From the NCBI GenBank assembly GCA_000004985.1, contig GG739589.1: a stretch of DNA of 1,055 nt. The stretch is one strand, 5' to 3'. This document shows, one piece after another, positions 1-1,055 of the stretch. The translations under genes and the position numbers were made by a program. Source of the DNA: Naegleria gruberi. Lineage: Eukaryota. The notes below the pieces were generated by a model, which searched no databases, was not told where the DNA came from, and was given only the letters and a program-made list of their open reading frames with translations. How positions within the stretch are numbered: position 1 is the stretch's first letter; the number at the start of each line of letters is the position of its first letter.

Positions 1-19
1 TACCAACTCCCGAACGGCT

Positions 20-37
20 GCGATTCAGACGGTTCCG
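20..37. repeat. Internal 18-mer sub-repeat a (gcgattcagacggttccg) in module copy 1
   Basis: It matches 99-116 at 16 of 18 positions. The identical 18-mer is at 391-408 in copy 2. Confidence 0.7.
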
Positions 38-98
38 TAATTGCATAATCAATGAATGTATCGCGTAGCTGACGTTTCACAAATAGAAGTGAAGGAGG

Positions 99-116
99 GC
101 GATTCAGGCGATTCCG
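99..116. repeat. Internal 18-mer sub-repeat b (gcgattcaggcgattccg) in module copy 1
   Basis: It matches 20-37 at 16 of 18 positions and lies immediately 3' of gaaggagg. The identical 18-mer is at 471-488. Confidence 0.7.
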
Positions 117-159
117 ATTAAGAGACCGGTGTCCATAGATTTAATTTGATTATAAATAT

Positions 160-184
160 AGTGACTTTCGGAATCACTTTTTTT
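160..184 (+). terminator. Intrinsic-terminator-like hairpin plus T7 run at the 3' end of module copy 1
   Basis: The stem is agtga (160-164) paired with tcact (174-178), with an inner tt/aa pair and a cgg loop, followed by a T-run at 178-184. The stem is short and AT-rich, so it is thermodynamically weak. Confidence 0.35.
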
Positions 185-240
185 ATGTTTGAAACATGCT
201 CAAAAATCAATTTCTATAAAATAAAATCTTTACAAAAGGT

Positions 241-266
241 TATATAGATAATAGATAGATATATAT
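241..266. repeat. Low-complexity (ATAG/GATA)n-like tract
   Basis: tatatagataatagatagatatatat is visible directly in the sequence. Confidence 0.6.
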
Positions 267-282
267 TCATAAAAATCATTGT

Positions 283-299
283 CAACTTTTGAACGGCTG
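283..299. repeat. Solo partial copy of the module 5' terminus (caacttttgaacggctg vs caactcccgaacggctg at 4-20 and 375-391)
   Basis: The match is 14 of 17, with the 9-mer gaacggctg exact. The three differing bases are ccc to ttt. Loose similarity continues for about 10 more nt and then is lost. Confidence 0.5.
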
Positions 300-315
300 G
301 GTTCTAGCCATTTTT
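295..315 (+). terminator. Small GC hairpin plus T5 run (weak terminator-like)
   Basis: ggct (295-298) pairs with agcc (306-309) around the 7-nt loop gggttct, followed by ttttt at 311-315. It lies immediately 3' of the solo gaacggctg motif. Confidence 0.25.
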
Positions 316-329
316 GATATAATAGTTAT

Positions 330-357
330 TTGACTATACAATGATATATAATAATAT
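330..357 (+). promoter_or_regulatory. Possible sigma70-type promoter upstream of module copy 2 (TTGACT-16-TAATAT)
   Basis: The -35-like ttgact is at 330-335 and the -10-like taatat at 352-357, separated by a 16-nt spacer. This would put a start site around 364-366, just before the copy 2 boundary at 371. The region is AT-rich, so chance matches are frequent. Confidence 0.2.
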
Positions 358-390
358 CAATTTTTTGAGGTACCCAACTCCCGAACGGCT

Positions 391-408
391 GCGATTCAGA
401 CGGTTCCG
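391..408. repeat. Internal 18-mer sub-repeat a in module copy 2
   Basis: Identical to 20-37. Confidence 0.7.
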
Positions 409-449
409 TAATTGCATAATCAATGAATGTATCGCGTAGCTAACGTTTT

Positions 450-460
450 CAAAAAAAAAA
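450..460. repeat. A11 homopolymer tract inside the divergent patch of module copy 2
   Basis: aaaaaaaaaaa is at 450-460. The corresponding region in copy 1 (75-89) is cacaaatagaag, which is interrupted. Confidence 0.8.
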
Positions 461-470
461 ATGAAGGAGG

Positions 471-488
471 GCGATTCAGGCGATTCCG
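471..488. repeat. Internal 18-mer sub-repeat b in module copy 2
   Basis: Identical to 99-116. Confidence 0.7.
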
Positions 489-531
489 ATTAAGAGACCG
501 GTGTCCATAGATTTAATTTGATTATAAATAT

Positions 532-557
532 AGTGACTTTCGGAATTCACTTTTTTT
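532..557 (+). terminator. Intrinsic-terminator-like hairpin plus T7 run at the 3' end of module copy 2
   Basis: The stem is agtga (532-536) paired with tcact (547-551), with a 10-nt loop, and the T-run is at 551-557. The arrangement is the same as in copy 1. Confidence 0.35.
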
Positions 558-824
558 ACATTCGATTTAGACGATTTAATGGTAGTATAATTGAGTATAC
601 AGGTCTATTATAAAGAATATATTGGGTAGAAACGGGTTAATTTTTTTAATCGATTTTATGCATATATTACAAGAGGAATATAATGTTTTACAGTATTTGG
701 TTATTTTAAAATCGGCTAGAAATGAAGTGAGGACAAAAATTTTAAAAAATTTCAGTCAAAAATATGGTCATATTTATCAGTAAACTATATCTTGTGGATT
801 TATATATTAATAGATTTTTCGTTT

Positions 825-852
825 TTGACACCTCTATTGTAAACACTATAAG
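825..852 (+). promoter_or_regulatory. Sigma70-type promoter-like element (TTGACA-16-TATAAG) directed toward the GC-rich structured element
   Basis: A perfect -35 hexamer ttgaca is at 825-830. A 16-nt spacer follows, then tataag at 847-852 (5 of 6 match to TATAAT). The predicted start site is around 859-861, about 25-35 nt upstream of where the GC-rich structure begins. Confidence 0.35.
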
Positions 853-884
853 ATTATTTATTTATAGTTATTTCCATATCTACT

Positions 885-1055
885 TTCGAGTTCATCGAAC
901 CCCCCGAAATGTCTGAACTTCAGTTCCTAACCTTGCGGACAGCAGGATCCTAAGGGATTACCCTCATCGAGGGTATCAACGCCCTTCGGAGCCCCCAATG
1001 GGTCAACCACCCGTTGGGGCCTGCTGTTCACACCGGGGGTCGGTAACCCTCCCCG
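885..1055 (+). ncRNA. Unidentified GC-rich, highly structured RNA-like element (truncated at the window end). Alternatively an organellar-type GC cluster.
   Basis: GC content rises abruptly from about 25% to about 60%. A long-range helix pairs 937-946 (ggacagcagg) with 1020-1029 (cctgctgttc); it is 10 bp with one G·U. It encloses four hairpins. The first is ccctc/gaggg (961-965 with 969-973), which competes with aggg/ccct (953-956 with 961-964). The second is gcc-c(ttcg)g-gc at 981-992, carrying a C(UUCG)G tetraloop. The third is a 10-bp stem at 993-1002 with 1010-1019 and a 7-nt loop tcaacca. The fourth begins at 1035-1051 (ggggg/ccctc) and is cut by the window end. G·U pairs at 938·1028, 999·1013 and 1036·1050 would be A·C mismatches on the minus strand, which favours + strand transcription. 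I found no match to tRNA, 5S, tmRNA, RNase P, SRP or the common riboswitch cores from memory. Confidence 0.4.

Follow-up and report, generated by a model that had tools for sequence, protein, structure and literature searches.

A strand-biased motif family in the spacer of the Naegleria rDNA circle as a candidate RNA polymerase I spacer element

Why does a stretch of Naegleria gruberi DNA carry the same 18-mer four times, and does that 18-mer matter apart from the longer repeat in which it lies? The window, by which we mean the whole stretch of 1,055 nucleotides that was analysed, contains GCGATTCAGRCGRTTCCG exactly at positions 20-37, 99-116, 391-408 and 471-488, all on the + strand, and none of the shuffled windows matched (0/200). 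The copies come in pairs, two in each of two modules. According to the first-pass annotation the paired copies differ at two purines, which is exact: only positions 10 (A/G) and 13 (G/A) distinguish the two 18-mers of one module, and the pairs are identical between modules. The same annotation gave their spacing as 79 bp and placed the two sites on opposite faces of the helix. Module 1 does have this 79-bp spacing, but an indel in an A-run brings it to 80 bp in module 2, and related contigs have 80 bp as well; the argument about helix faces therefore loses the fixed distance on which it rests. The sites had also been described as GC-rich islands in AT-rich DNA; they are so to a moderate degree only, with 38-48% GC in the modules vs 15-30% in the spacers.

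The 18-mer itself consists of two tandem 9-mers. These agree at 8/9 positions where GCGATTCAG is followed by GCGATTCCG (site 2) and at 6/9 where it is followed by ACGGTTCCG (site 1). It is a lineage-specific tandem doubling of a 9-bp core, GCGATTCAG, which at site 1 directly follows a second motif, GAACGGCT.

The window lies in a circular rDNA element of Naegleria type and covers part of its non-ribosomal spacer (NRS), some 1.8 to 0.7 kb before the start of the 18S gene. Contigs of 13.9 and 14.4 kb were reached through a spurious 41-aa ORF (window 658-783) that had been recorded as a called protein, and the window is 99% identical to the rDNA contigs. On two contigs (L123 and L122), Rfam identifies one set of eukaryotic SSU, 5.8S and LSU rRNAs. 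Window 325-1055 corresponds to L123 1-731 and the 18S gene begins at L123 1463, i.e. about 730 nt past the window end. The rDNA unit is 13,799 bp long (~13.8 kb) with 40.7% GC and a single 18S-5.8S-28S set. A 23-kb contig (L124) covers 1.7 rDNA units, and the ends of L125 overlap, in keeping with a unit that is circular or head-to-tail; the circularity of the element is taken from the literature. All rRNA genes of Naegleria are located on a circular plasmid of about 4000 copies.

Downstream of the 28S gene we found an ORF with a homing-endonuclease-like zinc-binding domain (PF05551), and another, unassigned ORF lies just upstream of 18S. The only homolog found for the latter was a 98%-identical relative, and a metagenome scan with an alignment of the endonuclease ORF gave no further contig. 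By its layout (unit size, GC, ORF order) the element matches the published N. gruberi EGB CERE, which is ~14 kb long with 40.8% GC and 7 spacer repeat families of 34-371 bp (PMC5805870). For N. gruberi EGB two ARS consensus matches are reported, whereas the window's lineage has no exact one and thus differs from EGB at the strain level. The 5' end of 18S shares 91% identity with the published N. fowleri TY sequence, and the 3' end of the ETS (last ~210 nt) is ~80% identical to it and colinear. Within the window no ORF is longer than 53 aa, a tRNA search found none, and Rfam at E <= 10 gave only a chance match outside the modules.

For comparison we distinguish three close lineages (A, B and C) and a set of distant Naegleria-type rDNA contigs, found through a spurious LSU ORF: lineage D (L137, L138, L140), lineage E (L142), an N. 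fowleri-like contig (L139) and L141. The N. fowleri TY sequence is from the supplement of PMC13398248. Lineages D and E align with the window over 895..1055 alone (67-71% identity), at the start of their GC-rich block. What we call the ETS start is a composition boundary together with a conserved fold, and site positions such as -531 are counted from this fold, with window 923 as the anchor. The features of the window are as follows.

1..184, + strand: module 1, the distal copy of a ~185-bp spacer subrepeat, clipped by the window start (direct repeats D1/D2).
12..19, + strand: GAACGGCT directly 5' of site 1 of module 1, a motif confined to the spacer and to the + strand, present in several lineages.
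20..37, + strand: module 1 site 1, GCGATTCAG followed by ACGGTTCCG, exact pattern match.
99..116, + strand: module 1 site 2, GCGATTCAG followed by GCGATTCCG, exact pattern match.
161..184, + strand: weak hairpin GTGACTTTCGGAATCAC and T7 at the end of module 1, read from the sequence.
185..371, + strand: AT-rich spacer half of a ~372-bp tandem unit (GC 15-30%).
291..315, + strand: GAACGGCTGGGTTCTAGCC, then A and T5, another kind of GAACGGCT element, located in the unit's spacer half (repeat family D3).
372..557, + strand: module 2, the promoter-proximal copy, found in all three close lineages.
383..390, + strand: GAACGGCT, the spacer-only motif, directly 5' of site 1 of module 2.
391..408, + strand: module 2 site 1; CGATTCAG begins 531 nt upstream of the conserved 5' ETS fold (anchor at window 923) and aligns with a decayed GGCTCGGATCCA of lineage D at -540.
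471..488, + strand: module 2 site 2, -451 relative to the anchor; its counterparts in the alignment are L138 3511 and L142 3117 (CGATYCAGG, -448/-447).
533..557, + strand: the same hairpin with a 1-nt insertion and T7 at the end of module 2, read from the sequence.
562..579, + strand: decayed third site and fifth copy, TCGATTTAGACGATTTAA, at -360 from the anchor; a 5-mismatch match to GCGATTCAGRCGATTCYG in L124.
895..1055, + strand: start of the GC-rich block, taken as the 5' ETS (fold z = -5.7).

The modules are spacer subrepeats whose copy number varies between strains. Module 1 is 93% identical to window 374-556. The ~372-bp tandem unit is made of the spacer 185-371 and the module 372-557, and in L132 the preceding unit (8756-9126) is likewise a match, 98.7% identical to window 188-558. 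Two full modules are found in the window and in L132/L125 (lineage B), and one in L122/L129/L136 and L130 (lineages A and C); the copy missing from the one-module contigs is module 1. All close-lineage contigs have, in addition, a truncated module copy upstream. This truncated copy contains a hybrid 18-mer, GCGATTCAGACGATTCCG, whose 5' portion matches site 1 and whose 3' portion matches site 2, the product expected if recombination between the two sites had caused a deletion. We also compared the module with the presumed gene-promoter region (window 781-905). The best local alignments are no better than those of shuffles (p ~0.6 and ~0.8), and the module is thus rejected as a duplicated gene promoter of the type seen in Xenopus spacer promoters and enhancer repeats.

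This variability fits the view that the 18-mer has no separate function and is just the consensus of a fast-evolving subrepeat, shaped by slippage and unequal crossing-over, with the core as residual homology of old duplicates. We find this explanation doubtful but consider it the strongest competitor to a functional one. The exact 18-mer occurs only in the modules and in the one truncated derivative, the module number is one or two depending on the contig, and both the hybrid 18-mer and the decayed copies fit such a history. The distribution of more distant copies is harder to reconcile with it.

When one rDNA unit is scanned, 11 positions match GCGATTCAGRCGATTCYG with at most 5 mismatches, vs 1.8 in shuffles. 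Ten of these 11 fall in the spacer, from 3.7 to 0.33 kb upstream of the presumed start of the ETS, with 9/10 on the + (rRNA) strand. The decayed site at 562..579 reads TCGATTTAGACGATTTGA in L124, and ~1.8 matches of such quality are expected by chance per unit. Variants with 1-3 mismatches are found in three other sequence contexts of the spacer, with flanks unrelated to the module: the sites outside the modules are flanked by ACTTGCGATTCAGAGGATTCTCTTAATCC twice and by ACTTGCGATTCAGACGATTCTGTTAATCC once. One half-site is inverted and lies 34 nt upstream of the truncated module. The first-pass annotation would have been refuted by an 18-mer found in module copies alone; these variants and the inverted half-site lie outside them, and the exact form is module-bound. 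The shorter pattern CGATTCA[AG] has 9 copies in the spacer of lineage B and 7 in that of lineage D, where ~0.4 (~0.45 for lineage D) would be expected, and neither count was reached in 2000 shuffles. The core family is dispersed, nearly one-stranded (on the rRNA transcription strand) and confined to the promoter-nearer half of the spacer.

Towards the other end of the spacer the picture is different. No copy is found near the 28S 3' end, the first one in lineage B being 3.4-3.6 kb past the LSU end, and the N. fowleri spacer has no copy within the first ~4 kb past 28S. The ETS fold is preceded by three sites at distances of 350-550 nt. T-runs precede several of the sites, but such runs are common in AT-rich DNA.

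The distant lineages have neither the module nor the 9+9 dimer, and their spacers do not align with the window. Nevertheless the core recurs. Five of the seven CGATTCA[AG] copies of lineage D are on the + strand, and one, GAACGGCTGCGATTCAGAC, is identical to window 12-30 over 19 nt. Relative to the ETS fold the sites are at -531/-451/-360 in the window and at -540/-448/-368, on the same strand, in lineage D. An alignment of the upstream regions of the two has 585 columns and 44.8% identity, and exact identity in it exceeds 6 nt at one place only, CGATTCAGG at site 2. This stretch is also the best 12-column window of the alignment, and site 1 is the fourth-best. The decayed site at 562..579 matches L138 3591, GGCTGCGATTCAAGAC (-368), in position; MAFFT did not align them. 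A cluster of three sites, ~350-550 nt upstream of the transcribed-spacer start, has been kept in spacers that are otherwise unalignable. The intact sites are the first and second in the window and the second and third in lineage D, and this variation fits selection on the cluster, not on each site.

Among the non-AT-rich 8-mers common to the spacers of lineages B and D, GAACGGCT and CGATTCAG are at the top. All copies of AACGGCT in lineages B (6), D (5) and E (4) lie in the spacer and on the + strand (15/15). N. fowleri TY has 11 copies on the rRNA strand and 2 on the other, where 0.2 are expected per strand; all lie within the ~5.8 kb adjoining the ETS and represent about seven different contexts. 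N. fowleri TY and L141 lack CGATTCAG, which is weak in lineage E. Elements similar to the one at 291..315, which is the only terminator-like match of a terminator scan, are found at L137 8907 (GAACGGCTAGGGTCTAGTC) and in N. fowleri (GAACGGCTCGTTTCTAGGCG). In N. fowleri, GAACGGCT is located 43-52 nt upstream of a repeated TATAGG, for which no counterpart was seen in the window. Conservation is therefore layered: GAACGGCT is genus-wide, CGATTCAG is restricted to the N. gruberi-like group and the full 18-mer to the three close lineages. Only the first 9 bases of the 18-mer have a wider conservation, and the 18-mer as a unit is specific to one lineage group.

Within the close lineages the pattern is more ambiguous. 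Between lineages B and C the distal spacer is 62-92% identical, while the ~1.75 kb next to the ETS is 97-100% identical, with a sharp boundary. Divergence inside this block is too small for a site-level test among the three lineages, and a few of the changes fall in two sites: in lineage C the site at L132 8090 has 3 substitutions and the one at 8310 lacks its first G, in a block otherwise ~99% identical. With these substitutions the individual sites show no visible constraint.

For the view of the 18-mer as subrepeat consensus, the lineage-C substitutions within sites, the absence of module and dimer from lineages D, E and the N. fowleri-like sequences, and the sharp conservation boundary, which resembles recombination more than graded constraint, all count in its favour. 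Against it, the core is enriched and polar in spacers of ~45% identity, at matching distances from the ETS. The strand-biased enrichment of AACGGCT reaches N. fowleri, in about seven contexts, and a single best-conserved point in the upstream spacer is not expected of pure debris.

The reading that we prefer, with a probability of roughly 40%, is that the sites are polar binding sites: a sequence-specific spacer protein would recognise them and act on transcription by RNA polymerase I. The circle has a single gene, and a polymerase that is not halted in the spacer would come round to its promoter. The spacer protein would stop or pause the polymerases running through the spacer of the circle before they arrive at the gene promoter, and when bound it might also aid promoter loading, in the manner of the polar promoter-upstream terminator and enhancer elements of other rDNA spacers. 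Duplication of the subrepeat would then amount to a multiplication of sites. Pol I terminator factors are of the Myb class, and the AACGG core may point to a Myb-type protein here. A plausible candidate for the bound sequence is GAACGGCTGCGATTCAG. The protein-binding site suggested by the first-pass annotation survives in this restricted form: GAACGGCT and the 5' half recur in lineages without the module, which makes the motif a candidate, and the setting is not a bacterial replicon.

Several features of the sites temper the Pol I reading. The lack of a copy near the 28S 3' end is not what is seen for a primary terminator, and many of the copies are not independent of each other since they have arisen by duplication. 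The lineage-C changes within sites count against it too, as does the absence or weakness of CGATTCAG in N. fowleri, L141 and lineage E. As to polarity, the direct orientation could stem from the mode of duplication or from the instability of inverted repeats on a circle, instead of from function. Our literature searches returned nothing on Pol I promoters or terminators of Naegleria, and among the papers searched the Naegleria spacer repeats are given by length, with no motif, polarity or cross-species conservation.

Another group of explanations assigns the sites to replication of the rDNA circle, either as origin-linked repeats that load an initiator or ORC, or as polar fork barriers that prevent head-on encounters with Pol I. 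In Tetrahymena rDNA the origin domains are duplicated in tandem upstream of the promoter and contain repeated elements, and fork arrest is a second activity of the Pol I terminator proteins Reb1 and TTF-I. The Naegleria sites are repeated, polar and confined to the spacer, and most of them lie in the highly conserved ~1.75 kb by the ETS. The circle replicates autonomously, with a single origin within a 2.1-kb spacer fragment (PMC13315211), and a 636-bp fragment of the N. gruberi element serves as a vector origin (PMC12845041). The iterons proposed by the first-pass annotation keep some probability as an origin element, since the only origin of the circle lies somewhere in this spacer. However, spacings of 79-80 and ~293 bp are unlike iteron arrays, and the element carries no initiator (Rep) gene, its sole domain-bearing ORF being endonuclease-like. 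The lineage-B contig L125 lacks an exact yeast ARS consensus. As a candidate in its own right this consensus was rejected, with no exact match in the unit and one-mismatch matches in the window at chance level. On balance we regard a replication role of this kind as unlikely. It would be similarly unlikely, in our judgement, that GAACGGCT together with GCGATTCAG forms an element for a Naegleria nucleolar DNA-binding protein, perhaps Myb-like, that both stops Pol I read-through and arrests forks in one direction beside the single origin.

The last alternative, a structured RNA encoded twice, as a small gene or as a leader that carries its own terminator, with the 18-mers as an internal RNA duplication, is very improbable. 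Each module does end on the + strand with a short hairpin and T7, and the 3' arm of this hairpin can base-pair with the latter half of site 2; at 161..184 the arm is CGGAATCAC, which nearly repeats the half-site GCGATTCCG in inverted orientation. But the modules are no more stable than shuffled sequence when folded (z = +0.67 and +1.16, and -0.64 on the opposite strand), no Rfam family is found at E <= 10 except the chance match elsewhere in the window, the hairpins at the module ends fail the terminator scan (and bacterial intrinsic terminators are meaningless in a eukaryotic Pol I spacer), and the sequence between the sites is not conserved across lineages and has no covarying structure. A bacterial small RNA or riboswitch with a terminator was rejected on the basis of Rfam, of the non-significant folds and of the eukaryotic rDNA setting. 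A phage or plasmid origin was rejected as well, since blastn of both collections gave no match to the window.

Of the other suggestions, an operator or a partition site is without support. In place of a replicon with the Rep, partition or recombinase genes that the first-pass annotation proposed to look for, the setting is the spacer of a eukaryotic extrachromosomal rDNA circle, on which no Rep-like ORF was called. Scanning bacterial and archaeal genomes with the bare 18-mer gave at least 120 chance matches in high-GC bacteria; among the matches listed, none extends past ~22 nt, and the only double match is a coding Ser-Asp repeat. A scan of viruses with the 18-mer gave one chance match.

How does the proposed Pol I element compare with known ones? 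Established Pol I terminator elements include the mouse Sal box T0/T1-10, bound by TTF-I, the Xenopus T3 box GACTTGC and the yeast Reb1/Nsi1 sites. Like these, the candidate Naegleria element is short (7-18 bp), polar and repeated in the spacer, with at least one copy upstream of the presumed gene promoter. Unlike the Sal box, T3 and Reb1 systems, Naegleria has no copy just downstream of 28S. The distance to the presumed ETS start is ~420 nt for the nearest intact site and ~330 nt for the decayed one, vs ~170-215 nt in known terminators, and the motif has no sequence similarity to the Sal box or to the Reb1 site. The Xenopus T3 heptamer does occur within GACTTGCGATTCAG, the sequence of two sites outside the window; this may well be a coincidence.

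A second likeness is to the 5' NTS of Tetrahymena thermophila, which shares with Naegleria an extrachromosomal rDNA, a tandem segment of a few hundred bp upstream of the Pol I promoter and short repeated elements. There, the tandem ~430-bp domains 1 and 2 contain type I elements that are used in both origin and promoter function. The type I elements differ in being AT-rich ~33-mers of unrelated sequence, and the molecule is a linear palindrome. Bacterial iterons are similar in that direct repeats of ~18 bp lie on a self-replicating circle. The Naegleria element, in contrast, is eukaryotic, has no Rep gene and has its sites 79-80 or ~293 bp apart, unlike the iterons' phased array beside an AT-rich region and DnaA boxes.

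Subrepeats abound in the rDNA spacers of most eukaryotes, and part of what we describe is already known, namely the ~371-bp repeat of N. gruberi and the general existence of spacer subrepeats with binding sites. The repeat families of the Naegleria CERE (N. gruberi EGB/NEG-M, N. fowleri LEE, N. australiensis) concern the same molecule and region, and here the period is ~372 bp in one or two copies. In the N. australiensis CERE a ~360-bp repeat differs in copy number between assemblies (PMC10586121).

If the sites are neutral debris, the finding is an ordinary one. A short polar spacer motif that survives between unalignable spacers is, on the other hand, a concrete candidate for a control element. 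According to reviews, the sequences that control CERE replication, origin licensing and rRNA transcription are unknown (PMC13398248), and the undefined origin and promoter hamper the development of genetic tools for the pathogen N. fowleri (PMC13315211). Should the combined reading be true, with a nucleolar protein that acts on both Pol I and forks, the motif would be the first element in cis to be defined for CERE transcription and maintenance, and it could offer a handle for stable Naegleria vectors as well as a genus-specific target in N. fowleri.

The window ends within a GC-rich block that begins about 900 nt ahead of the 18S gene and probably represents the conserved 5' end of the external transcribed spacer (ETS). 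The first part of the block (window 895-1055) has a very stable predicted fold (z = -5.7), a few stems show compensatory changes, and four lineages share the segment CCTAACCTTGCGGAC-GCA-GATCC (window ~927-951) unchanged. An Rfam search of the block (window 895-1055 region) matched no family. GC-rich RNA-coding sequence probably accounts for the 173-182-aa "ORF" called in the ETS of L122, a related Naegleria-type rDNA contig, which would be an artefact.

Features of the GC-rich block and the ETS
Window 895-1055, extending beyond the window end; L122 10240-11130: GC-rich block, from its start
L122 10480-10570 and 10780-10880, beyond the window end: short tandem repeats in the ETS, of CCAACCAGCC type and ACCGCAGCCTTTTGGGCTGCCC type

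The similarity of lineages B and C, both close to the window, changes abruptly at L132 ~8108, some 830 nt before the window begins. The distal spacer is 62-92% identical between the two, versus 97-100% for the ~1.75 kb adjoining the ETS, the ETS itself and the rDNA. The promoter-proximal spacer may be under strong constraint, or the lineages may have recombined.

Within the spacer, and confined to it, GAACGGCT is found on the rRNA strand across Naegleria, with six copies per unit in lineage B, five in D and four in E. In the N. fowleri TY spacer eleven copies lie on the rRNA strand versus two on the other. Often a T-rich run precedes the motif on its 5' side, and the motif itself contains AACGG, which we take to be the core of Myb-type sites.

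Copies of GAACGGCT
Window 12-19, 291-298 and 383-390, rRNA strand
L137 (lineage D) 7929, 8907, 9449, 10892 and 11295, rRNA strand

A truncated module (L132 8645-8755) that bears a hybrid 18-mer, GCGATTCAGACGATTCCG, lies some 300 nt before the window begins. The half-site CCTGAATCGCAAGT, 34 nt upstream of this module, is inverted relative to the hybrid 18-mer, so that the two form an inverted pair. Among the bacterial matches listed, the only double match to the window's repeated 18-mer (L027 700-940, a Defluviitaleaceae MAG) falls in coding sequence, in a tandem repeat rich in Ser and Asp (GATTCAGACGATTCCGAC...), which shows that the repeated 18-mer arises by chance where low-complexity, acidic protein sequence is encoded.

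An ORF of 351-355 aa on the rRNA strand, located downstream of the 28S gene, has a homing-endonuclease zinc-binding domain (PF05551); it has relatives at 81% and 58% identity. Upstream of the SSU 3' end, VFQN01005947.1 carries a second PF05551 ORF, of 245 aa and presumably within an SSU group I intron, and this addition probably explains the greater size of the contig.

PF05551 ORFs
L136 383-1120 and 7027-8094
L125 7861-8916

The 18S 5' end of the N. fowleri-like rDNA contig L139 is 98.5% identical to that of N. fowleri TY. Directly upstream of its ETS (L139 1-4373) lie a gene for an MFS sugar transporter and an ORF of 474 aa, and the contig has zero copies of AACGGCT; since this differs from the published N. 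fowleri spacer, L139 may be a chimeric assembly. In the published N. fowleri TY circle (supplement of PMC13398248), the last ~1 kb of the spacer contains three consecutive copies of GAACGGCT, each 43-52 nt upstream of TATAGG(GGGGG). Since the same TATAGG motif is also located exactly at the GC-rich ETS start (CTACCTATAGGTGGGG), the sequence suggests that the Pol I start sites of N. fowleri are duplicated.
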